From positions 38,152 through 102,151 of the forward strand of contig NZ_JBKKAD010000168.1 in assembly GCF_046714715.1 (NCBI RefSeq): 64,000 nt of DNA, read 5' to 3'. Positions 3,672 through 33,929 of the stretch are shown in pieces. Every line of letters begins with the position of its first letter. Position 1 is the stretch's first letter. This DNA is from Conyzicola sp. GTDB lineage: Bacteria; Actinomycetota; Actinomycetes; Actinomycetales; Microbacteriaceae. Under the pieces are notes generated by a model. The model was not told the DNA's origin and did no database searches. It worked only from the letters and a program-made list of their open reading frames with translations. A program made the position numbers and the translations under genes.

Positions 3672-4133
3672 CTATCCCGCGAGCGCGCCGACCACCGGCG
3701 TCGTCAGCAGCACGAACCCGGCGACGTTCACCGCCGCGGTAACCCAGAAGACGGCGCGGAACGACCGCTTGGCCGTCTTGTGCCGCAGCATCTGCTGCGC
3801 GATGAGGGCGGCCGGCCAGCCGCCGACGACGGCGAGCAGGTGCAGCGTGTTCTCCGAGACGCGACGCCTGCCGGTTCCGGCGGCCCGCTTGTCGACGGCG
3901 TAGACGACGAAGGTGACGACACCCGCGACCAGGTAGAGCGCGTGCACCCAGACGGGGAACGGCCACTCGACCCACACGCCGAGATACAGCGCGGCGAAGG
4001 CGGCGAGCAGGATGTATCCGGGCAGGGCGGGCGCCGCTTTAGTGCGCGAAGAGCTCGTGGCCCTGCCTCGTGTGCCAGAGCCACGCACGTCGCGACCAAC
4101 GCCGCCCGTCGGTCGTCGCCCGTCAGATCCCAT
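3672..4133 (-). CDS. DUF1294 family membrane protein
   Basis: 153 aa; YAVDKRAA..RRRVSENTLHLLAVVGGWPAALIAQQMLRHKTAKRSF matches the DUF1294 signature as I recall it. Confidence 0.75.
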   Translation of the reverse strand: MGSDGRRPTGGVGRDVRGSGTRGRATSSSRTKAAPALPGYILLAAFAALYLGVWVEWPFPVWVHALYLVAGVVTFVVYAVDKRAAGTGRRRVSENTLHLLAVVGGWPAALIAQQMLRHKTAKRSFRAVFWVTAAVNVAGFVLLTTPVVGALAG

Positions 4134-4200
4134 CTGTCGAGGATAGCCAGCCGCCGCGGCTGCGAGCGCGAGCCCTGATTTCAGAGCCGCGCGGCCCGAG

Positions 4201-4620
4201 CTACGCCGGCCACACCCCGATGATCAGCGCCATGATCACGAGCGTCACGAACTCGTGCGCGATGTTCAGCACGGTCAGCCCGCTCGGACGCCCCTCGAAG
4301 GCGTCGTGCGTGATGAACCGCGCGGCGGTGAAGCCCGCCCACAGGATGATCGTGGTCACGAGCGCGTTCACCAGAAAACTGCCGCCGTAGAAGTCCCACG
4401 AGATGTAGGCTGCCCCGGCCAGCACCCACGCCGTGATGAAGCTCACGATGAGCGTGATCACGATCGGCCACGCCGCGTCCTTCGCGTTGCCGGAGGGGGT
4501 GACCTTCGCCACCCGCATCCAGTAGGTGCCGAAGACCTTCGGCGTGTACCAGACCGTACCGACGATCATGCTCGACAGGGTCGCGAGAATGACCGCCCAG
4601 TAGTTGATTTCGGGAGCCAT
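4201..4620 (-). CDS. DUF1761 family membrane protein
   Basis: 139 aa; N-terminus INYWAVILATLSSMIVGTVWYTPKVFGTYW is typical of DUF1761; four TM segments. Confidence 0.7.
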   Translation of the reverse strand: MAPEINYWAVILATLSSMIVGTVWYTPKVFGTYWMRVAKVTPSGNAKDAAWPIVITLIVSFITAWVLAGAAYISWDFYGGSFLVNALVTTIILWAGFTAARFITHDAFEGRPSGLTVLNIAHEFVTLVIMALIIGVWPA

Positions 4621-4673
4621 GATGTCCTTTCGCCGTGCGGTTGACGGAATTCTATGACTAACCTCGAAGAATC

Positions 4674-6035
4674 ATGAGTACCACCCGACCACCGGAACGC
4701 CTTCTCTCCCCGCAGTATCTCTGGACCACGGTCGGAGCCATCACCCTGATCTTCCTCGGCGCGTTCGAGTCGCTCGCCGTGACCACGATCATGCCCACCG
4801 TCAGCCGCGAACTCGACGGCGAGGCGTTGTATTCGCTCGCCTTCTCGGCCACCCTCGCCGCGAGCGTCATCGGCATGGTCGTCGCCGGCGGCTGGTCCGA
4901 CCGGCGCGGTCCGTCCGGACCCCTCATCGCGTCGATGGCGGTGTTCGTCGTGGGTCTCGCGCTGTCGGGCACGGCGGAGAACATGTACGTGTTCATCGTC
5001 GGCCGGTTCCTGCAGGGCCTCGGTTCCGGCGCGACGATCGTCGCGCTCTACGTCGTGGTCGCGCGCATCTACCCGCCCGCGCTGCATCCGCGCATGTTCG
5101 GCGCGTTCGCGACGGCCTGGGTGCTGCCGTCCCTCATCGGCCCGCCTGTCGCGGGCGCCGTCGCCGACACCGTGGGCTGGCACTGGGTGTTCCTCGGCGT
5201 CGGCGTGATCTCGCTGGTCGCGGCCGGCGCGATCGTTCCCGCCCTGCTGCACCTTCGGTCGGTGGTCGTCGCCCCCGGAACAGCGGGCGCCCGCTGGGCC
5301 GTGCTCTGGGCGATCGTGGTCGCCGTCGCGGTGCTCGCGATCGGGCTCGGCGGCGAGAACGGCGGCCCGTTCGCCTGGCCCATCGTGGTGGTCGCCTTCG
5401 TGGTCGTGGTGCTGGCCCTGCGCCCATTGCTGCCGCGCGGAACCCTGATCGCCCGACGTGGCCTGCCCGCGACGGTGTTGCTGCGCGGCGCGGTCGCGGC
5501 GCCGTTCTTCGCGACGGAGGTCTACCTGCCCTACCTGCTGCACGAGCAGTACGGCCTGCCGTCGTGGCTGGCGGGGCTCATCCTCACGGTCGGCGCTCTG
5601 TCGTGGGCCGCCGGATCGACGCTGCAGGGACGACTCGGTGACCGGATGTCGCATTCCGCGACCCTGCGCATCGGTGCCGCCATCGTCTTCGCCGGTATCG
5701 CGGTGCAGCTGCTGACGGCCGCGCTGCTGCTCTCACCGATCGTCGCGGCCGCCGGATGGCTGCTCGCCGGCGGCGGTATGGGTCTGCTCTTCCCGCGCCT
5801 CTCGACCCTCGTGCTGTCGCTGTCCAGCGACACCGACCAGGGTTTCAACAGCTCCGCGCTGACCATCGCCGACTCGACCGCCGCGGCAACGGCGATCGCG
5901 TTCGCCGGTCTCGTCTTCACGGCGTTCGGTGCGGCGACCGGCGCCGGCTTCGTCGCGGCTCTCGCGCTGACGACGGTGCTGGCACTCGTGGCCATCCCGA
6001 TCGCCGCCCGCGTCCAGACCCGCACCGACGCCTGA
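4674..6035 (+). CDS. MFS transporter
   Basis: 453 aa with 12-14 hydrophobic helices; GWSDRRGPSGP loop (MFS motif A-like) between TM2 and TM3. Confidence 0.85.
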   Translation: MSTTRPPERLLSPQYLWTTVGAITLIFLGAFESLAVTTIMPTVSRELDGEALYSLAFSATLAASVIGMVVAGGWSDRRGPSGPLIASMAVFVVGLALSGTAENMYVFIVGRFLQGLGSGATIVALYVVVARIYPPALHPRMFGAFATAWVLPSLIGPPVAGAVADTVGWHWVFLGVGVISLVAAGAIVPALLHLRSVVVAPGTAGARWAVLWAIVVAVAVLAIGLGGENGGPFAWPIVVVAFVVVVLALRPLLPRGTLIARRGLPATVLLRGAVAAPFFATEVYLPYLLHEQYGLPSWLAGLILTVGALSWAAGSTLQGRLGDRMSHSATLRIGAAIVFAGIAVQLLTAALLLSPIVAAAGWLLAGGGMGLLFPRLSTLVLSLSSDTDQGFNSSALTIADSTAAATAIAFAGLVFTAFGAATGAGFVAALALTTVLALVAIPIAARVQTRTDA

Positions 6036-6075
6036 CCCGTAAGCCGCTTTTATCGCCGCATTGCCTCGAGCGCGG

Positions 6076-6549
6076 TCAGCGCAGTATCGCCTCGAGCGCG
6101 GCTACCGCCGGCACCTGGCCCTTGACCAACCTTGAGCGCGCGACGTCGGCCGGGCACCACTCGGCACGGTCGATCTCGGGGAAAGTGATCTGATGACCGC
6201 TTCCCCGCGGCCACTCGACGGTCACGGGGTTGCTCGCGAACTCGTGCTCCGCGAATCCGAGATCGCTTTCGGCCGCGAACACCGTGACGATCTTGCCCGA
6301 CACGTAGCGAAAGTCGCCGAGCCGAACGTATTCAGCCTCCGGTGCGGGCTGCCCGATCTCTTCGGCGAACTCGCGTCGAGCGGTCGCGAAGTCGTTTTCG
6401 CCGGGTTCGATGAGTCCTTTGGGGATCGACCACGCCGCGGCATCGCGCCTCGCCCAGATCGGACCACCCATGTGGCCGATGAACACCTCGAGGCTCTCCC
6501 GGCGCCGGTACAGCAGGAGGCCCGCGCTGTGATCGGCGGAGGTAGGCAT
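6076..6549 (-). CDS. NUDIX hydrolase
   Basis: 157 aa; Nudix box GLIEPGENDFATARREFAEEIG (G-x5-E-x7-REUxEExG). Confidence 0.85.
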   Translation of the reverse strand: MPTSADHSAGLLLYRRRESLEVFIGHMGGPIWARRDAAAWSIPKGLIEPGENDFATARREFAEEIGQPAPEAEYVRLGDFRYVSGKIVTVFAAESDLGFAEHEFASNPVTVEWPRGSGHQITFPEIDRAEWCPADVARSRLVKGQVPAVAALEAILR

Positions 6550-6560
6550 CCCTCAGCCTA

Positions 6561-6601
6561 AAACGACGAGGGCCCCGACAGCAGAAGCTGCGGGGCCCTC
6601 G
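6561..6601 (-). terminator. rho-independent terminator candidate downstream of the SRPBCC gene
   Basis: 11-bp GC stem cgagggccccg / cggggccctcg with a 13-nt loop, followed on the minus strand by tcgTTTT. Confidence 0.5.
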
Positions 6602-6685
6602 AGGTAACGAACTGGCCACACCTCACGGTAGGCTCTCCGGCTGGTTCGAGCGTTGTGCTCGCGCGTACCAGTCGAACGCGCGGTG

Positions 6686-7141
6686 CTAGTTGGCGACGTC
6701 TCCGCGCCAGGCTCCGGTCGCGGTGTGCTGCTCTTCGATGAACTTCTTGAAGTTGTCGAGGTCGCTCTTGATGATGTGGTCGTCGACACCCAGAACGGCG
6801 CCGGCCTTTTCGGCGAGGCCGCTGGCCTCCCAGTCGAGCTGCACGGTCACGCGCGTTTCGTCGTCTTTCAGCTTGTGGAAGGTGACCACACCCGCGTGGT
6901 TCTCTTCGCCGCCTACGCTGTTCCAGGCGACGCGCTCGTCGGCGTGCTGCTCAGTGATCTCGGCGTCGAATTCGCGCTCGATTCCGGCGACCTTCACCTT
7001 CCAGTGCGTGAGGGTGTCAGTGGTCTGGGTGATCGACTCGACGAAGCTCAGGAACTTGGGGAACGTCTCGAACTGGGTCCACTGGTTGTAGGCCGTCGAA
7101 ACGGGAACGTTGACGTCGACGGTTTTGATGACCTGGGGCAT
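6686..7141 (-). CDS. SRPBCC family protein (polyketide cyclase/dehydrase-like)
   Basis: Start moved to ATG at 7141 (MPQVIKTVDVNVP..), which has AGGAAG about 9 nt upstream; sequence YNQWTQFETFPKFLSFVESI...WNSVGGEENHAGVVTF is typical of the family. Confidence 0.8.
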   Translation of the reverse strand: MPQVIKTVDVNVPVSTAYNQWTQFETFPKFLSFVESITQTTDTLTHWKVKVAGIEREFDAEITEQHADERVAWNSVGGEENHAGVVTFHKLKDDETRVTVQLDWEASGLAEKAGAVLGVDDHIIKSDLDNFKKFIEEQHTATGAWRGDVAN

Positions 7142-7382
7142 TGCTATCTTCTTCCTGTTGATCTCTCTGGTGGATTGATCTGTCGGTTGCATTGATGTGC
7201 GGGCCACAAGGTTCGTGGCCACCCCTTCGACGTTACGGAGCCACCGGAGCGCTCGCTGCCCCTCGCCAGCGCGACGGTCGGGTGCTAGTGTCCCGCGTCG
7301 ACCGCCCGTTCACAGGTTCGCCCGATTCACGCGTTCGCTGGTTCGATCTAGCAGACAGCGCTCCACCCGGCCGCCTCCCTGG

Positions 7383-8891
7383 CTATCCTGCCGCCGCTCT
7401 CTCCAGGTCGTGCAGCGCGGCGCTCTTCGAGGGCATCGCGCGCGGAACACGGTCGGGGTCGACGTCGGCCGGCGGCACGAGCCAGTAGTCGGCACCGCTT
7501 CGCGTGATCTCCCAGTTGTTGTCGTGCAGCAGCAGATGGTGATGTCGGCAGAGCAGGATGCCGTTCACAATGTCGGTGGGGCCGTGATCGCGTTTCCAAT
7601 GTCGAATGTGGTGCGCTTCGGTCCACGAGGGTGGCCGATCGCAACCGGGCCAGCGACAGCCGCCATCGCGGGCCGCGAGGGCCACGCGTTGCCGCGCGGT
7701 GAAGAGCCTCTGTTCGCGGCCGACGTCGATGGGTTGCCCGGTAAAGAAGTCGATCGTGAGGGTGCCCACGTCGCAGGCGTTGCGTTCGATAGTCGCGATG
7801 GAGACCGGGATGTCGAGACCCTCGATGCGTCCGTGGCTGGGGGAGGGGGCTGTTGCGACGCCAGCACCAGCACCGACACCAGCGCCAGCACCAGCACCAG
7901 CACCGGTACCAGTTCCACCACCACCAGAACCGCCAGCGCCGAACGCCGAGCCCGCACGGGCGCGTTTCGCCGCTTCCAGCGCGGTCACGTTGGCGAGCAA
8001 CCGCACCGCGGGCACACGGGAGCCGACCATGATGCGCGACTCGTCGGCCGCCGACCCCGCCCGCAGCACGTGCAGGAACGCATCGTGCACGTATTGGTCG
8101 GTCGTGCGGCCATCGGCGACGACAGCGTCGGCCCAAGCCTTGTCGTCGGGGTCGACGAACCGCGGCCCGCCCCGGCGTGGCGAGCTGATCGAGTCGTAGA
8201 GCGAGTCGAGGAACGCCGTGGACTCGAGATCGGCGTCGACGATGTAGCGGTTCAGGCCGTTCGCGCGTCGAACCCGGCGAACCGCCCGCTGCTCATAGAT
8301 CTGGCGTTCACGTTCGACGATGCCGGCTTCGTCGAGGTCGTCGCGAAGTTCGCGGGCGCGCTTGAACATCGCGTCGGCATCGAGCGGGAGCGCGACCAAC
8401 GATGCCGCCGCAGCGCTCAGCTGTTCGGCAGTGACCCCGACCCCCGGCTCACCGAGCCCGGCCTGAATGGCCGTCGCAGCCGCGACGGAAAGCGAGCCGC
8501 CTGCAACCGCCCGCCCGACGTCGCGCATCCAGACGGCACCCGAGGGTGTCGGCTCGTGGGCGTCGAGCACCAGCGCCCCGGCCTTCACCAGTGTCACTGC
8601 GTCGCGGGCGGTAGACCCCGTCTCGTGCTGCACGAGCTTCTCGGGCGTGCGGAAACCGGAGCGCTGAGCGAGGCCGGAATGCCCGAGCGACGGGTCTGAG
8701 CGGCGCCCGACCTCGCCCGCGACGACCGCGGCAGCGGTGTCGACCGCGCGTCGCACCGCCGCGAGCGACCGCTGGGCCGCCAATAGCTCGTCATCGGAGA
8801 TAGACGTGAAGACCGTGGCATCCGAGGGCACCGACTCGGCGCACTGCAACAGCGTTGCGAGCGACGCATCGAGTGGGGCCGTGGAAGACAT
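7383..8891 (-). CDS. HNH endonuclease, DUF222 (13E12-repeat) family
   Basis: C-terminal CRWPGCDRPPSWTEAHHIRHWKRDHGPTDIVNGILLCRHHHLLLH HNH motif; N-terminal DUF222-like region; alternative start at 8939. Confidence 0.85.
   Translation of the reverse strand: MSSTAPLDASLATLLQCAESVPSDATVFTSISDDELLAAQRSLAAVRRAVDTAAAVVAGEVGRRSDPSLGHSGLAQRSGFRTPEKLVQHETGSTARDAVTLVKAGALVLDAHEPTPSGAVWMRDVGRAVAGGSLSVAAATAIQAGLGEPGVGVTAEQLSAAAASLVALPLDADAMFKRARELRDDLDEAGIVERERQIYEQRAVRRVRRANGLNRYIVDADLESTAFLDSLYDSISSPRRGGPRFVDPDDKAWADAVVADGRTTDQYVHDAFLHVLRAGSAADESRIMVGSRVPAVRLLANVTALEAAKRARAGSAFGAGGSGGGGTGTGAGAGAGAGVGAGAGVATAPSPSHGRIEGLDIPVSIATIERNACDVGTLTIDFFTGQPIDVGREQRLFTARQRVALAARDGGCRWPGCDRPPSWTEAHHIRHWKRDHGPTDIVNGILLCRHHHLLLHDNNWEITRSGADYWLVPPADVDPDRVPRAMPSKSAALHDLERAAAG
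7861..7945. repeat. hexanucleotide-type microsatellite (ccagca/ccggta)n inside the HNH gene
   Basis: Run ccagcaccagcaccgacaccagcgccagcaccagcaccagcaccggtacc..; encodes the GGSGGGGTGTGAGAGAGAGVGAGAGV linker. Confidence 0.8.
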
Positions 8892-27676: not shown

Positions 27677-28650
27677 TGAAAGCGATAGTGCAAGACCGAT
27701 ACGGCGACTCGTCTGTGCTGCACCTCGACGACGTGCCCATGCCGACGATCGGCGACGACGACGTGCTGATCGAGGTGCGCGCCACCTCGCTCAACATCGG
27801 CGACATCCATCTCATGACGGGACTGCCGCTGATCATGCGCCCGTTCGTGGGATTCAAAGGTCCCAGACAAAGAATCAGGAGCATGGATGTCGCGGGGCTG
27901 GTGCACTCCGTCGGCCCTCGTGTCACGGCCTTCAGGCCCGGCGACGAGGTGTTCGGCGTCGTCGACGCCGGTCTCGCCGAGTATGCCCGCGCCTCGGTCA
28001 AGAAGATCGCCCCGAAGCCGGCCTCGCTCTCGTTCGAGCAGGCCTCGGCGATCCCCACGTCCGCGGCCACCGCCCTGCACGCGCTGCGCGACACCGGTCA
28101 CGTGCAGGCCGGGCAGAAGGTGCTGATCATCGGAGCGTCCGGCGGTGTCGGCATCTTCGCAACCCAGCTCGCGAAGGCGTTCGGCACACACGTCACCGGC
28201 GTCGCCAGCACCGCGAAGCTCGACCTGGTGCGCTCGCTCGGCGCCGACGAGGTCATCGACTACACGACGACCGACTTCACCCGGTCGGGGGAGCGCTACG
28301 ACCTGATCGTCGACATGGCGAGCACGCACACGTTCGGCGATCTGCGCGGCGTTTTGGCACCCGACGGCACGCTTGTGATCGTCGGGGGAGAGGCCGGCGG
28401 CCGCTTCACCGGCGGCGTCGGTCGCGCGATGACGGCACCGCTGCGGGCCATCGGCTCAAAGCAGAAGCTGAAGGGCCTGATCTCGCTGACAACCGCCGCC
28501 GACCTCGCCATGCTCACTGAGTTCGTCGAAGCGGGCAAGCTGGCGCCCGTGATCGACGCCGCGCATCCGCTGGCGGATGCATCCGAGGCAATGGCTCACC
28601 TGCAGTCATCGCGCGGGTCAGGCAAGCTCGTGCTCACACCTGCCGGTTGA
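27676..28650 (+). CDS. NAD(P)-dependent alcohol dehydrogenase / quinone oxidoreductase (MDR)
   Basis: 324 aa; IIGASGGVGIFATQLAK Rossmann motif; ATGA overlap with the upstream stop; its stop TGA lies inside a GAGTAG-element. Confidence 0.85.
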   Translation: MKAIVQDRYGDSSVLHLDDVPMPTIGDDDVLIEVRATSLNIGDIHLMTGLPLIMRPFVGFKGPRQRIRSMDVAGLVHSVGPRVTAFRPGDEVFGVVDAGLAEYARASVKKIAPKPASLSFEQASAIPTSAATALHALRDTGHVQAGQKVLIIGASGGVGIFATQLAKAFGTHVTGVASTAKLDLVRSLGADEVIDYTTTDFTRSGERYDLIVDMASTHTFGDLRGVLAPDGTLVIVGGEAGGRFTGGVGRAMTAPLRAIGSKQKLKGLISLTTAADLAMLTEFVEAGKLAPVIDAAHPLADASEAMAHLQSSRGSGKLVLTPAG

Positions 28651-28679
28651 GTAGGTCGCTCCGCGACCGTATCGAAGCC
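28643..28679. repeat. GAGTAG-element, left-half copy
   Basis: ccggttgagtagg-tcgctccgcga-ccgtatcgaagcc; truncated exactly where the low-GC island begins. Confidence 0.8.
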
Positions 28680-28684
28680 TGCTT

Positions 28685-28732
28685 TCGAAAAGCGAGCCGC
28701 CACTATCACTATCCAACATGGCGGCGGCTCGC
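28685..28732 (-). terminator. rho-independent terminator candidate ending the small Cys-rich ORF / helicase transcription unit
   Basis: 10-bp stem gcgagccgcc / ggcggctcgc (21-nt loop) followed on the minus strand by TTTTCGAAA. Confidence 0.5.
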
Positions 28733-28789
28733 CCTCGTGCGTAACTGCGACGTCAGGCAGCTAAGGCTCGACGAGCATTTTGCTCTTTA

Positions 28790-28939
28790 TTAACCCATAG
28801 CGATGCATTGCTTACAGCGGTCGTTTCCGCCGGTACCGGAAACACGATTGCTCGCGGGGATCTGTTGTCCCGTGGGGCAATGTTCGTGATCATGATAGAC
28901 GTCGGGATCCGACGGGTTTGACGAGTGATATGCGCTCAT
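28790..28939 (-). CDS. hypothetical small Cys-rich protein (49 aa)
   Basis: Not in the ORF track; MSAYHSSNPSDPDVYHDHEHCPTGQQIPASNRVSGTGGNDRCKQCIAMG; strong AAGGAG 6 nt upstream of the ATG; C-x20-C-x2-C spacing. Confidence 0.55.
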   Translation of the reverse strand: MSAYHSSNPSDPDVYHDHEHCPTGQQIPASNRVSGTGGNDRCKQCIAMG

Positions 28940-29017
28940 GACGTTCTCCTTTGAAACATCGTGAGGAGCAAGGTGCCCCTACAACGCAACTGTATGTAAC
29001 GGATGCGGCACAGGGGC

Positions 29018-31105
29018 CTACGAAACGCCGACCCACAGCCCGTCACGCGCTCGCGTCATCGCCACATACAGTGCGCGGCGATCAAGTTCTCGACGCTCGC
29101 TCGATGCGTTGTCAGCGGCGGGTGCAGATTCGAGAAGTGAGCGGGGTGTACGTGCCATCAGTACCTGTTTGAACTCGAGCCCCTTCGCCCGGTGAACGGT
29201 TCCGACCTTCACCGCATCAACTGCTTGACCGCTGTAATGCGTCAGCTCAACCGTGGGGATTCCGGCAGCCTGCAGCGCCTTGACCATGTGAGCAGCCTGC
29301 CAATTGGCGAGTGCGAGCACACCCACATCGCCGTAACTCGTGCCCGTCGCCTTGACAGCCAGAACGTGGTCCACAAGCGATTCGTCGTGGAGGGTGGTTG
29401 AAGCGAACCGTGTAATCATTGGGGCGGGGCCGTGCCTCAGGATCTCCTGTGAAGCATCCGCCATGCTTATCGCGCCCTCGATGTCGACGAATTCGTCGCC
29501 GGCGACAAGCGAGGCGGCGAACTCTACGATCTCGAAGGTATTTCTGTAGTTCGTGGTCATGACAACGCCGCGGCCAGCGATCGACACATTCGCCTCGGCA
29601 AGAGTGAAGCCGCCAGGGTAGATCGTCTGTTGGCCGTCGCCGATCAGGTTGAGCCCGTCGGGCTTGTTGCCAACGAGCGAGTGCAACATTCGCACCATCA
29701 TGCACGTGAGATCCTGAGCCTCGTCAATGATGACCGCGCTGTAGCCTTCGAGCGGCTTCGTCCGTAGCGAGGCAGCGGCGTGCAGGATGACATCGGGGAA
29801 GTCGTAGATCTGGGCTGCGATTCGAGCCTTCTCGTAGGCAACGTAGAAGCGCCACACGTGGCGGCGCTGCTCGACAGTCAGCCGTCGACGTCGCCCGGAA
29901 CGCGCCAGAGCGGAGTACTGATCGATGGTCCGGATGCCACGGCCTTTGATCACTGCATTGATCTCGTCGAGCCAGTAATCGGCTGAAGGGTCGAGCACCT
30001 CAAGGTCGGCGCCATAACGGGACCAAGTGGCGTCGAAGAGGCTCTCAGCCTCTTCATGTTGAAGATTGACGTGCACGCCTCGCTGTTTGAGTACGTCGAG
30101 GGCGAACGAATAGACGCCGTGAAACTCGACGCGGTCACTCACATCGGGAGCGAGCCGCGCGAGTAGCGATTCGAGCACCGCAGGGAGGGTTCGGACGAAC
30201 GCCGTAACGAGTACCTTGCCCTGATTCGATCGCGCCAAATAGGCCGCGCGATGCAAACCGACGACGGTCTTTCCCGTCCCGGCAGCGCCGCGAATCCGCG
30301 AAGGACCGGAAAAGGTCCGATTCACGAGCTTCGCCTGCGTCGGGTGCAGGAACGCCATCCAATCTTCGATCGGAAGCGCCATCACTCCCTCGACGAGTGC
30401 GCTCTCGATCTCGGCGGCCGTCAATCTGTTCACATAGACGGCTTCAGGCAAAAGGTCCGGTAGGTCTTCGGGCAGAACGGGTTCGACGAACGACAGATCC
30501 AGCTCCAGTGAATTGTCGGTCTCATAGATGGGAAAAAGCTCGTCTAAGGCCTCGACGACGTTCGCCAACTGAGCGGTGGAGAGTCGCGCGCCCGCTCGCG
30601 AGATGCGCGTCACCACCTCAGCTTCGGAGAGGAGGGTGACCCCGTAGAGGTCCGTGCTCTTGAAGTTCCGCTTGTCAGTGAAAACCGCCAGCGCGTGAAC
30701 TTCGCCGGGCGCTAGCCCGATGTCCGCGAGAATTGTGCGGGTGGAGTCGGCTAGGTCAGCGATGTTGGCGAAGTCATCCGTGACATCCGCCTGATCCCGA
30801 AAGACGGCCCCGCCGGCGACAGTCACGTCGCGCCACGCTTTGGCGTCGACGATGAAGACTCCGCCCGGACCAGCGACGATGAAGTCGACCTGCGCGCGAC
30901 GGCTTTTCGGCCACCGACGGTCGGCCAACACCGTGTAGCCGCGGCTCTCGAGCACTTCGAGTGTGTGCGCTAGGCGCCGCTCGCTGTGTGCGGCCGCAGC
31001 AAAGCGTCGTTCCATTTCCTTTGCGGCGGTCGCGAGGCGTTCGAGTTCTCCGGCCAGCAAGCCCTGGCGGTGCGACTCGAGTGCGGCGGAATCACCTGCG
31101 GGCAT
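29018..31105 (-). CDS. NERD nuclease domain - UvrD/REP-type SF1 helicase fusion protein
   Basis: 695 aa; NERD-type PD-(D/E)xK motif QVDFIVAGPGGVFIVDAKAW; helicase Walker A GAAGTGKT, motif II VIIDEAQDL, motif VI VGTVHRAKGLEFKQV. Confidence 0.85.
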   Translation of the reverse strand: MPAGDSAALESHRQGLLAGELERLATAAKEMERRFAAAAHSERRLAHTLEVLESRGYTVLADRRWPKSRRAQVDFIVAGPGGVFIVDAKAWRDVTVAGGAVFRDQADVTDDFANIADLADSTRTILADIGLAPGEVHALAVFTDKRNFKSTDLYGVTLLSEAEVVTRISRAGARLSTAQLANVVEALDELFPIYETDNSLELDLSFVEPVLPEDLPDLLPEAVYVNRLTAAEIESALVEGVMALPIEDWMAFLHPTQAKLVNRTFSGPSRIRGAAGTGKTVVGLHRAAYLARSNQGKVLVTAFVRTLPAVLESLLARLAPDVSDRVEFHGVYSFALDVLKQRGVHVNLQHEEAESLFDATWSRYGADLEVLDPSADYWLDEINAVIKGRGIRTIDQYSALARSGRRRRLTVEQRRHVWRFYVAYEKARIAAQIYDFPDVILHAAASLRTKPLEGYSAVIIDEAQDLTCMMVRMLHSLVGNKPDGLNLIGDGQQTIYPGGFTLAEANVSIAGRGVVMTTNYRNTFEIVEFAASLVAGDEFVDIEGAISMADASQEILRHGPAPMITRFASTTLHDESLVDHVLAVKATGTSYGDVGVLALANWQAAHMVKALQAAGIPTVELTHYSGQAVDAVKVGTVHRAKGLEFKQVLMARTPRSLLESAPAADNASSERRELDRRALYVAMTRARDGLWVGVS

Positions 31106-31251
31106 TCGCGGATCCTGTCGTCGTGACGCTCACGGCCGAGCGTCCGTCTCATCCTGCACTAGCTGAGCCTCCCTCGACAGAGGCCAGTTGTGGGGGTAGC
31201 TGACTCCCGTCAGAATTCAATAATGCTGAGATTTACTAGTAGTTTGAACGC

Positions 31252-32973
31252 ATGTTGTCTTGGGGAGTTAGTGATTTCAAATCGCTCGTGTCAGCTCGAT
31301 TGAAACTCGACGGGCGACGGTTAAGCGTTGTGAGCGGTACCAACAGCTCCGGAAAATCGTCACTTTTGCAATCACTATTGCTCCTATCGCAGTCAAGTGC
31401 CGGAGGAGGCGAGCTTGCGCTCAACGGTCGACTGGTGCGTCTGGGTGCGCCTGATGACGTGGTGCGTAACGGTCAAAAGAGTCTCGAGCTCGCCTTCGAA
31501 TTCTCTCCGGTCGAAGGTAGATCGCAAGGACAGACCGCTCCTGAAATGAAAGTGCAGTTTTCCCTTGCCCCAAACGGACCTAGGCTCACCGTCGTTGATG
31601 TCGAGATTTTGGACCTAGCCGACGCAACAGTTGTTTTCGAGGCGACGGTGACTCGGCTGAACCGGGCAGACGTAAAGGCGCTATCTGACCTGCTCAGGGA
31701 CGATTCACTAACGGTGCTCCGAATATCTACGGAGAACCAACGACGCGCTGCAAACAGGATGTATTTGGTTCTGCGAGGTTTGATGCCGGTGGGAATCGCA
31801 CTGATCAGATCGGCCTCGTGGATAGAAAAAACCTATAACGGCTACGTCGAGGACTCGAGCTTCAAGAGCCCCAACGTTCAGGAGAACCCAAACCGGCTAC
31901 GTTCCTTTGTGACGAATGAACTCAGTTTGCTGGTGAACAAACGGGAGTTCATGGCCTCGCACCCCGAAATCGAACCGATTGAAGATCAGTCGCCGATGTA
32001 TCGAACTCGGTGGTCACTTCAAGAGTGGCGATCAATGGAAGCGAATGTCCGCCAAGAGCTGGTGGATTTGGCTATTCGTCAGCGTTCTCGGAACCCCTGG
32101 GTGGTCATTTCGACCAATGGCGCTCGTTTCGACGGGCGGAATCCCACGCGCTATCAAGGGCTCGTAGAGAACGTGGTGGCAAGCGAACACGAGCTAGCTC
32201 TACACCTACTCGCGACAGTGGGGGAGGAAATTGAGAACACGGCGGACGATATCGCATACCTCGGGCCGCTGAGGGACGAACCGAGGGTTGTCCATAGCGC
32301 TTGGGACGAGCGAATGGAATCTTTGCCTGTTGGTATTCGTGGCGAGTTGACTGCCGAAGTGCTAACCCGGCTAAAAGATCATCGGGTGACGTATGGCGAT
32401 TGGGATGGTAAAACCCGAACAGAGAGGCTACCGGAAGCGGTCAGTCGCTGGTGCGAGTACTTGGGCATTGGAGACCACATTGAGGTGATCGATCACGGGA
32501 AACTGGGACGCGGCGTTCGACTTAGAGTTGAGGGCGTTCATCGAGACCTTACGACGATTGGCGTGGGTGCAAGCCAGCTGCTTCCGGTCTTAGTCGCGGC
32601 ATTGGCTATCGACGAGAATTCAATACTTTTGATTGAGCAGCCCGAACTTCACCTGCATCCCGCGGTCCAGTCCCGCCTGGCAGACTTCTTCTTGTTCGCC
32701 CGCCCTGACGTTCGACTCATAGTAGAGACCCATAGTGAGTATCTCGTGACTCGCCTGCGTCGTCGTGTTGCTGAGGGCCGTACGCCTAGCGACGGCATAG
32801 CGGTCATATTCGTGGAGCAGGAGAACGGAGCGTCGACTCTCCGCACCCTTTCGATCGATCAATTCGGGGACATGTCGGAATGGCCCACGGGGTTCTTTGA
32901 CGCGCAGGATTCTGACTCGCTCGCGATTATGAAAGCTGTAGCTAGGACGATGCAAGCCGGGCTCGATTCGTGA
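31252..32973 (+). CDS. ABC-type (AAA_15/AAA_21-like) ATPase with DUF3696-like C-terminal tail
   Basis: 573 aa; N-terminus DFKSL..VVSGTNSSGKSS (Walker A), GVGASQLLPV signature-like, ILLIEQPELHLHP (Walker B/D-loop), VETHS (H-loop), terminal WPTGFFD; no TOPRIM region. Confidence 0.85.
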   Translation: MLSWGVSDFKSLVSARLKLDGRRLSVVSGTNSSGKSSLLQSLLLLSQSSAGGGELALNGRLVRLGAPDDVVRNGQKSLELAFEFSPVEGRSQGQTAPEMKVQFSLAPNGPRLTVVDVEILDLADATVVFEATVTRLNRADVKALSDLLRDDSLTVLRISTENQRRAANRMYLVLRGLMPVGIALIRSASWIEKTYNGYVEDSSFKSPNVQENPNRLRSFVTNELSLLVNKREFMASHPEIEPIEDQSPMYRTRWSLQEWRSMEANVRQELVDLAIRQRSRNPWVVISTNGARFDGRNPTRYQGLVENVVASEHELALHLLATVGEEIENTADDIAYLGPLRDEPRVVHSAWDERMESLPVGIRGELTAEVLTRLKDHRVTYGDWDGKTRTERLPEAVSRWCEYLGIGDHIEVIDHGKLGRGVRLRVEGVHRDLTTIGVGASQLLPVLVAALAIDENSILLIEQPELHLHPAVQSRLADFFLFARPDVRLIVETHSEYLVTRLRRRVAEGRTPSDGIAVIFVEQENGASTLRTLSIDQFGDMSEWPTGFFDAQDSDSLAIMKAVARTMQAGLDS

Positions 32974-33842
32974 GGACGATCGTCTTTGACCCTGGTCTGG
33001 CGCTTTCAACTTTCAGCTCTCCAGTGGAACAAAGTCGTTTCTGGGTTCGTTTTGTCGAATGGGAGCGCGATGAACGCGTCGCAATGGGCAGTGAAACGCA
33101 TGGAGCAGTGAGTCACTTCTACGCGACGCGAGTATGCAGCAGCGGCAGTAGCGTGCCGGCAGGCATGTCCAAAGGGGTGCATCGAGCAATGAAGGCTCTG
33201 CTGAGCCGGCCCCCGCTCAAGAACGCTGATTCGTTTAGAGAGCGAACACTGGACGTAAAGTACCTTGGCAAGGACGCTAACGCCACTATTCTCGCGATTG
33301 ACATCGGGGCCATGCAGCATGCATCCGAGTTGCACCTCGCGATCGCCGCCGAATGCTGGCCTGCTGGTGTAACGGTTGGGCGCGTACTACCCGCTCCGCC
33401 GGAGCGGGTCTTCTTCCAAACGGTGCCGAACTCACCAACTGAATCGGAAAGGTGGGAAGCTCGCGCAGACGCGCTACAAGACTTCAAACTTCTTGTCGTC
33501 GGCGGCCAACCAGACAGGTCTGTTGCGGAATCACTACTTGCGAAACTGAATGTCGACAGATCTCGACTTGTATGGGTCCCCTGTGAGAAGTCCAAACCTC
33601 CGCGAAATCTGGATGCGCAAATCAAAGGTACCCGGGACTCACAAACGATTGTGATTTGCATCACCGGGAAGATGGGGCATTCGACGTCTAACAAAGTTCG
33701 GGAGAACTGCACGAAGGTGGGGATCCCGCTTGTCAACGTGGAGTCTGCGGGTGAGATATTGCCGAAACTTGGAAAGTACGCCGATGCGTTGGTCGCCGCC
33801 GCTCGTCTGGCTCTGAGCACCGGTGCTGACGTGGGAGCCTAG
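32970..33842 (+). CDS. hypothetical protein with DUF2325-like C-terminal domain
   Basis: 290 aa; GTG overlaps the ATPase stop (GTGA); C-terminus LLVVGGQPD..(about 45 aa)..TIVICITGKMGHSTSNKVRENCTKVGIPLVNVES fits the DUF2325 pattern as I recall it; N-terminal 170 aa unrecognised. Confidence 0.6.
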   Translation: MRTIVFDPGLALSTFSSPVEQSRFWVRFVEWERDERVAMGSETHGAVSHFYATRVCSSGSSVPAGMSKGVHRAMKALLSRPPLKNADSFRERTLDVKYLGKDANATILAIDIGAMQHASELHLAIAAECWPAGVTVGRVLPAPPERVFFQTVPNSPTESERWEARADALQDFKLLVVGGQPDRSVAESLLAKLNVDRSRLVWVPCEKSKPPRNLDAQIKGTRDSQTIVICITGKMGHSTSNKVRENCTKVGIPLVNVESAGEILPKLGKYADALVAAARLALSTGADVGA

Positions 33843-33929
33843 AACCACAGCCCCCACATAGAAACCGCATAGCCGCCCCTGTCTAACTAGTCACACCTCG
33901 TTCACCGACTAGTAACCCAGGAGCGCACC

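Follow-up and report, generated by a model that had tools for sequence, protein, structure and literature searches.

A coupled NsnB-type ATPase and NsnC-type partner with a DUF2325-like domain: an NsnA-less, two-gene variant of the Menshen lineage in Conyzicola sp.

What kind of system is encoded by two coupled genes, one for an ATPase of the ATP-binding cassette (ABC) type and the other for a small protein with a resemblance to DUF2325? We asked this question of a 64-kb stretch of Conyzicola sp. DNA (hereafter, the window), in which an ATPase open reading frame (ORF) of 573 amino acids (aa) (positions 31252 to 32973, plus strand, ATG start) is followed by a partner ORF of 290 aa (32970 to 33842, plus strand, GTG start). 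The GTG of the partner lies over the TGA stop of the ATPase gene in a GTGA overlap (32970 to 32973, plus strand), an arrangement indicative of translational coupling. An earlier note, made from the sequence, had listed both ORFs, five ATPase motifs, and the overlap, all of which were found in their places, and had concluded that the module fitted no described system. The latter conclusion did not hold, as the ATPase turned out to be of the NsnB type and the N-terminal domain of the partner to be homologous to those of NsnC-type proteins. We classify the pair as an NsnA-less, two-gene variant of the Menshen lineage composed of an NsnB-type ATPase and an NsnC-type partner, a classification that is solid at the level of sequence comparison; what is new here is the absence of NsnA and the presence of a DUF2325-like domain in the effector slot. 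Both window proteins had a 100% identical counterpart in NCBI, from Conyzicola sp. (Microbacteriaceae), the ATPase being entered there as 'AAA family ATPase', and since, in addition, the ATPase had more than 7,000 homologues at an E value of ≤1e-10 and the partner family comprised 137 clusters at 50% identity, the pair does not represent chance ORFs.

The best PADLOC matches of the ATPase were to NsnB (2.6e-62), HEC-03B (1.2e-57), and PDC-M55A (9.4e-49), with AriA, PtuA, and GajA far behind NsnB (1e-18 to 1e-8). In Pfam it matched AAA_21 (1.2e-17), AAA_15 (6.8e-16), and DUF3696 (4.6e-07; 30.4 bits against a cutoff of 22 bits), all above the cutoff, and the same search found no TOPRIM, HNH, or DUF4435 domain. 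These results bear out the placement of the protein by the earlier note in the ABC/OLD-type class of Septu, PARIS, and Gabija; the protein has no nuclease fused to it and ends in a DUF3696 tail, and ATPases with DUF3696 do occur in Menshen (PMC12065111), as the note had mentioned. Full-length actinobacterial relatives were 36 to 56% identical to the window ATPase; the nearest solved structures were PtuA and OLD, with no close relative among the PDB structures. Judged by its profile matches, the protein belongs to the ABC ATPases of the NsnB/HEC-03 type and has a DUF3696 tail.

The motifs of the ATPase were scored for invariance in an alignment of 31 homologues. Invariant residues were found in the Walker A motif GTNSSGKSS (aa 29 to 37, positions 31336 to 31362; G29, N31, S32, G34, K35, S36, and S37), the signature-like GxG motif GVGASQLLPV (aa 437 to 446, 32560 to 32589; G437, V438, G439, S441, and Q442), the Walker B/D-loop segment ILLIEQPELHLHP (aa 458 to 470, 32623 to 32661; E462, Q463, P464, and E465), the H-loop ETHS (aa 492 to 495, 32725 to 32736; E492, H494, and S495), and the DUF3696 tail (aa 513 to 555, 32788 to 32916), in which W544, P545, and F548 belong to the motif WPTGFFD (aa 544 to 550); all of these lie on the plus strand. 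In the Walker B of this family, E-Q (E-Q-P-E, within LLIEQPE) replaces the D-E that is canonical for ABC proteins, and its invariance suggests that the ATPase is probably not a fast motor but a slow-hydrolyzing switch that binds ATP. For NsnB, a change of the SGG signature to GxG and of the Walker B DE to EN has been described (the latter in NsnB of S. silvestris), and a helix of DUF3696 has been predicted to be the docking site of NsnC (PMC12065111). From the AlphaFold 3 NsnB4-NsnC2 models of that study we infer that the DUF3696 tail of the window ATPase would likewise serve for docking of the N-terminal domain of the partner.

Relatives of the partner were less easily found: word-index searches retrieved only two or three proteins, even with a profile of 93 sequences, and an exhaustive HMMER scan was needed to recover the family, nearly all members of which had 265 to 290 aa and aligned end to end. 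In the alignment of 93 sequences, the conserved residues were D7, P8, W25, W31, D34, R36, G40, D111, W130, and P153 in the N-terminal half and G178, G179, W202, E206, G233, and H237 in the C-terminal half. The AlphaFold2 model built from this alignment (predicted local distance difference test score [pLDDT], 95.2; predicted template modeling score [pTM], 0.87) consisted of two domains, aa 1 to 155 and a four-stranded alpha/beta domain, aa 156 to 290. Neither the window partner nor any of the 93 relatives matched the PADLOC NsnC models or any other relevant PADLOC model. A Foldseek search of PDB and BFVD with the full-length model gave nothing at an E value of ≤1e-3, only generic Rossmann-like folds, and a profile search of PDB returned a de novo designed protein only. 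The single NCBIfam match, to uridine phosphorylase, was nonsignificant (E value, 0.0056) and was not used.

We then asked whether the two genes travel together. A scan with the ATPase alignment of one genome per GTDB species matched at least 575 stretches and provided 80 of them as loci (a query with the single ATPase against the genomes of close relatives had given no locus, and the alignment query was needed); to these were added four loci found via ATPase homologues, three found via partner homologues, and one plasmid, pROB02 of Rhodococcus opacus. Pairs were detected by searching six-frame ORFs with hidden Markov models (HMMs) for each of the two proteins. In all 17 loci of the window clade that were examined, the ATPase gene was directly followed by a gene for a partner homologue, and the junctions of homologous pairs were either overlaps of 1 to 11 nucleotides or gaps of 4 nucleotides; conservation of the two genes as neighbors across genomes, for which the earlier note had proposed a check, was thus borne out. 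A full DUF2325-type partner was present in 13 of the 17 independent loci, the window included. In the other four, from Nesterenkonia halobia (L006), Leifsonia sp. (L007), Nesterenkonia salmonea (L010), and Mycobacteroides abscessus (L088), the match was confined to the N-terminal domain: the N-terminal ~145 aa of the downstream proteins (312 to 318 aa) matched the partner HMM, and their C-terminal halves matched the PADLOC NsnC models (6e-38 to 3e-44). In a rough neighbor-joining tree of the ATPases, these four NsnC-type loci were nested inside the DUF2325-type clade, which was distinct both from the HEC-03 clade and from a clade of 640-aa ATPases.

The N. halobia locus (3924 to 8662) is a three-gene, Menshen-like one, with genes for a DUF262/GmrSD_N protein, the ATPase, and the NsnC-type protein. 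The DUF262/GmrSD_N gene lies upstream on the same strand, and its product matched the Pfam family (5e-31) and the PADLOC models PDC-M55C (6.8e-19) and NsnA (6e-9), the NsnA match being weaker than those to HEC-05 and PDC-M55C. With an NsnC-type protein whose N-terminal domain is homologous to that of the window partner, this locus is the bridge linking the window pair to Menshen. One metagenomic protein of 666 aa (P0179) joined the C-terminal part of an ATPase (AAA_21/AAA_15, aa 228 to 296) to a full partner (aa 395 to 636), an apparent fusion that is either real or an artifact of a frameshift or of gene calling.

The N-terminal domain of the partner (aa 1 to 155; 32970 to 33434, plus strand), which the earlier note had found unrecognizable, provided the link to NsnC. 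Its profile aligned with the N-terminal domain of the NsnC-type sister proteins with an hhalign probability of 98.6% and an E value of 1.3e-15, the alignment ended at the domain boundary, and D7-P8, W25, D34, G40, D111, and W130 were common to both. On this profile evidence, the domain is homologous to the N-terminal domain of these NsnC-type proteins. The model of this domain (pLDDT, 94.7) had PIN proteins (1v8p, 2bsq, 2fe1, 7vwo, 6a7v, and 7f3e) as its best Foldseek matches, one match being PAE2754, a protein cited for the N-terminal domain of NsnC in PMC12065111, and weakly suggests a PIN-like fold. The N-terminal domains of NsnC have been described as catalytically inactive ('inPIN'; PMC12065111). 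With the hhalign result and the shared signature residues, we view the N-terminal domain of the window partner as a divergent PIN-like, inPIN-type adaptor that, by analogy, would dock on the ATPase.

How far, then, does the likeness to Menshen go? Menshen consists of NsnA, NsnB, and NsnC (Millman et al. 2022, as cited in Li et al. 2025, PMC12065111). In the in-depth study of the system by Li et al. (PMC12065111), NsnA, which combines ParB-DUF262 with ParBDB, was the seed and the defining component and was proposed as the DNA sensor, and NsnC's C-terminal domains were divided into 15 families, with BECR, Toprim-type DUF4276/RloB, PLD, DUF4160, PB-UF1, and DUF2103-like among the named types. The window pair shares with Menshen an ATPase with an ABC core, a GxG signature, a noncanonical Walker B, and a DUF3696 tail; the NsnC layout of the partner, a divergent PIN-like N-terminal domain followed by a swappable C-terminal one; and the position of the ATPase gene directly before the coupled partner gene. 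It differs in that it has no NsnA gene and in that the C-terminal domain of its partner is DUF2325-like and lies outside the 15 published families of domains, nuclease effectors and other toxins, that fill this slot in NsnC. The annotated DUF2325-type loci also had no DUF262 gene directly upstream. An assignment of both proteins to a named system of the same architecture, which the earlier note had set against a novel module, thus stands in part: the ATPase and the N-terminal domain are of the Menshen type, but NsnA is absent and the C-terminal domain is foreign to the NsnC families. That such NsnA-less relatives are uncatalogued is explained by the fact that Menshen has been defined and mined via its DUF262 sensor, NsnA.

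The C-terminal domain (aa 156 to 290; 33435 to 33839, plus strand) is DUF2325-like, with a four-stranded, Rossmann-like model. The sole Pfam match of the window partner was to DUF2325 over aa 212 to 261 (E value, 8.3e-4; 19.9 bits, which is below the cutoff of 33.6 bits), and 40 of the 93 relatives matched this family (PF10087) at an E value of ≤0.01, the best value being 1.7e-7, so that the resemblance to DUF2325 pointed out in the earlier note was upheld. The R. opacus homologue on pROB02 is named 'DUF2325 domain-containing protein' in RefSeq, and a viral protein of the same name was among the top matches of the domain in the Foldseek search of BFVD (probability, 0.99; E value, 0.015), while that of PDB gave generic Rossmann- or flavodoxin-like folds only. 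In the model, G178/G179, E206, and G233-x-x-x-H237 directly follow strands 1, 2, and 3, respectively, and if the sheet is a parallel one of the Rossmann type, these conserved residues would lie at its usual ligand-binding edge. The model thus speaks less for a classical nuclease than for a putative site, enzymatic or binding, directed at a nucleotide or phosphate. ATPases of one clade and N-terminal domains of one family go with either type of C-terminal domain, and the simplest reading of the DUF2325-like domain is therefore as the effector. In the literature library searched, we found no published link of DUF2325 to defense, and the function of the family has not been described. The same DUF2325-like domain, with its IVGG...W.PSEKNKP...IGHS.S motifs (here IVGG...W.PSEKNKP...RIGHSRS), also ended a 748-aa protein, P0248, encoded on a short contig (L090, 1733 to 3979), the N-terminal region of which was unrelated, belonged to no other Pfam family, and had no similarity to the ATPase or the N-terminal domain; this occurrence fits a portable module.

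Taking these results together, we consider it moderately probable that the window pair is a two-gene, NsnA-less Menshen derivative that was acquired horizontally and has a DUF2325-like domain where the toxic effector would sit. The two proteins would form a complex of the type formed by NsnB, through DUF3696, and NsnC, through its N-terminal domain, to which the coupled genes, the strict synteny, and the apparent fusion P0179 point indirectly. As in the NsnB4-NsnC2 models, Septu, and PARIS, the ATPase would oligomerize, and paired DUF3696 tails would clamp the N-terminal domain of the partner, keeping the C-terminal domain inert. With no NsnA, the complex of ATPase and partner would itself have to sense infection: a phage cue would alter the ATPase in its nucleotide state or conformation, thereby freeing or activating the C-terminal domain, which would then stop phage replication or the growth of the infected cell. 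More tentatively, the DUF2325-like domain may represent a new effector of abortive infection, other than a nuclease, that acts, for example, on a nucleotide or cofactor through its GG/E/H pocket under the control of an NsnB-type ATPase that senses the phage without NsnA.

Several points weigh against this explanation. The experimental evidence of defense is that obtained for relatives, Menshen and HEC-03, and the contact between the two proteins is drawn by analogy. A search for DGxQR/DUF262-like ORFs over the whole 64-kb window found none, so that the component proposed as the sensor of Menshen is missing. The C-terminal domain is a candidate effector by its position, and by Foldseek and the PDB profile search this domain had no nuclease or known toxin signature, being only generically Rossmann-like. 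In the N-terminal domain, the Foldseek matches from which the PIN-like label derives were all weak and nonsignificant (E values of at least 0.37), and D7, D34, and D111 were nearly invariant (≥90% conserved) and could form a catalytic cluster.

The last of these points would suit a reverse division of labor, modeled on HEC-03 (Hma-embedded candidate 03; Payne et al., bioRxiv 10.1101/2024.01.29.577857), an experimentally validated defense system that requires both of its genes and, like the window pair, combines a related ABC ATPase with a small partner and has no DUF262 sensor. The PIN-like N-terminal domain would then be a nuclease effector and the DUF2325-like domain a regulator or sensor, e.g., a nucleotide-ligand gate, which would also agree with the lack of a recognizable toxin motif in the latter. 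On the other hand, the same N-terminal domain family, with the same residues, is fused to NsnC-matching domains in the sister loci, where it would act as the adaptor, and its NsnC counterparts are inactive. The model further implies that D34 and D111 precede strands, whereas the catalytic acids of PIN domains follow them. The HEC-03 ATPases have ~450 aa and formed a separate clade, and in six genuine HEC-03 loci the partners were single-domain, canonical PIN proteins of ~170 aa matching PADLOC HEC-03A, with invariant acidic residues (D7, D49, E60, D119, and D144 in alignment A5) consistent with an active PIN domain. The window partner did not match the HEC-03A model, and its hhalign probability against the HEC-03 PIN profile was 0.1%. 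Such a nuclease role of the N-terminal domain thus seems unlikely to us. The PADLOC candidate PDC-M55 (A, ATPase; C, DUF262) resembles the window pair in that its A model is matched by the window ATPase, but the window has no DUF262 component, and none of the PDC-M55 models is matched by the partner.

A further possibility is that the pair forms, together with a neighboring helicase gene, a three-gene, Gabija-like system of an ABC ATPase and a UvrD helicase. The gene in question encodes a 695-aa protein with NERD and a UvrD-type superfamily 1 helicase (29018 to 31105, minus strand), is transcribed divergently 146 bp from the pair, and is also of low G+C content; its product matched the PADLOC candidate C3a187 'NERD+UvrD' (3.4e-34) and many GajB models. 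PARIS (AriA/AriB), Septu (PtuA/PtuB), and Gabija (GajA/GajB) are all similar to the window pair in that an ABC ATPase of the OLD type holds an effector, separate or fused, or regulates it, and the matches of the window ATPase to the AriA, PtuA, and GajA models and to PtuA structures were weak but significant. The similarity is, however, confined to the ATPase motifs: the tail is DUF3696, and neither DUF4435/Toprim, HNH, nor, in contrast to Gabija, a TOPRIM domain fused to the ATPase is present. In Gabija, moreover, the UvrD helicase GajB is a conserved member of the operon, while the helicase gene of the window is divergent. No homologue of the helicase was found in 84 loci (L001 to L084), including the first 10 loci of related pairs, nor was a NERD-UvrD gene among the annotated neighbors of the later pair loci, and the difference in G+C content (~60% for the helicase gene versus 52 to 58% for the pair) suggests separate acquisition. 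The helicase was rejected as a third component since it is not conserved with the pair, and no conserved third gene accompanied the pair across the examined loci, which leaves the earlier idea of a new ABC three-component-type system without its third member. We judge a Gabija-like system to be very improbable; the helicase is probably an independent, single-gene defense candidate within the same island. It is also quite unlikely, in our view, that the pair has nothing to do with defense and is instead a selfish addiction (toxin-antitoxin-like) module or serves DNA maintenance of mobile elements. The pair is often found on plasmids and conjugative elements and near recombinases, and DUF2325 has no described function, both of which would be compatible with such a role; yet the ATPase and the N-terminal domain are homologous to parts of validated defense systems, several contexts of the pair are rich in restriction-modification and other defense genes, and there was no match, and thus no phage-encoded partner, in 50,697 phage records.

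If the NsnA-less Menshen derivative proposed here is correct, the window and 12 loci of the same type indicate that the NsnB-NsnC core travels as a self-sufficient, coupled pair in Actinomycetota and that the effector slot is occupied in this clade by a DUF2325-like domain, a candidate new effector, in place of an RNase or DNase. A DUF2325 effector working without NsnA would give DUF2325 its first function and would make the NsnB-NsnC core an autonomous, widespread defense chassis, of which the three-gene Menshen would be only one elaboration. A functional result would test whether NsnB alone senses infection; in PARIS, Septu, Gabija, and Menshen, the rule is that an exchangeable effector is caged by an ABC ATPase, and the same result would widen this rule to an output that is possibly not a nuclease.

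The pair lies in a low-G+C island (28650 to 33900) between a gene for a zinc alcohol dehydrogenase and a DUF4956-VTC-Cthe_2159 cluster, its upstream neighbors being the divergent NERD-UvrD helicase, the zinc alcohol dehydrogenase, a helix-turn-helix protein, and a TetR regulator. The flanks have a G+C content of 64 to 71%, and the low value of the pair relative to them marks the region as compositionally foreign; horizontal acquisition by the Conyzicola genome is proposed as part of the best explanation given above. We looked for a tRNA gene, an integrase gene, and flanking direct repeats delimiting the island and found none.

Related pairs were usually located in defense or mobile islands. 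Their neighbors included a type I restriction-modification system at one locus; nSTAND, DUF4238, and TrwC at another; a conjugative-element region with SIR2_2 and ArdC; recombinases; and an integrase. The pair on pROB02 lay in an island with HEPN, DUF262, Dcm, HNH, NaeI, Vsr, and DUF1998 genes. There, a DUF262 (383 aa) and HEPN operon (L089, 5975 to 7668, opposite strand) was situated downstream of the pair and convergent with it, the Dcm, HNH, NaeI, Vsr, and DUF1998 genes lying beyond this operon. At another locus (L093, 6302 to 8861), the pair was found between the region of a Helicase_C_3 gene, with NUDIX, EamA, and peptidase M13 genes in between, and a gene for an XPB/ERCC3-like helicase, a site that may be an insertion hotspot.

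Among the loci of the ATPase scan, ~48 (within L011 to L082; e.g., L040, 5989 to 8953), from many phyla, carried an NsnB-like ATPase of ~640 aa together with a partner of ~345 aa. The ATPase of this type at L040 matched PADLOC NsnB at 1.8e-74. A conserved upstream gene for a protein of ~930 aa, considered as a further component of these loci, was rejected, as the genes in question turned out to be unrelated (aconitase, pyruvate dehydrogenase E1, a methylase, DUF6079, and a kinase). The ~345-aa partner matched no Pfam family or PADLOC model and had a conserved C-terminal motif, H..R.G.GGN.PQ..RG.D.A.RRDID.E.HLHYW; its N-terminal ~100 aa were homologous to the N-terminal domain of the window partner (hhalign probability, 82%; E value, 1e-5). 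This pair seems to be a further NsnA-less one of the Menshen-like kind that has not been catalogued, and it is much more widespread than that of the window.

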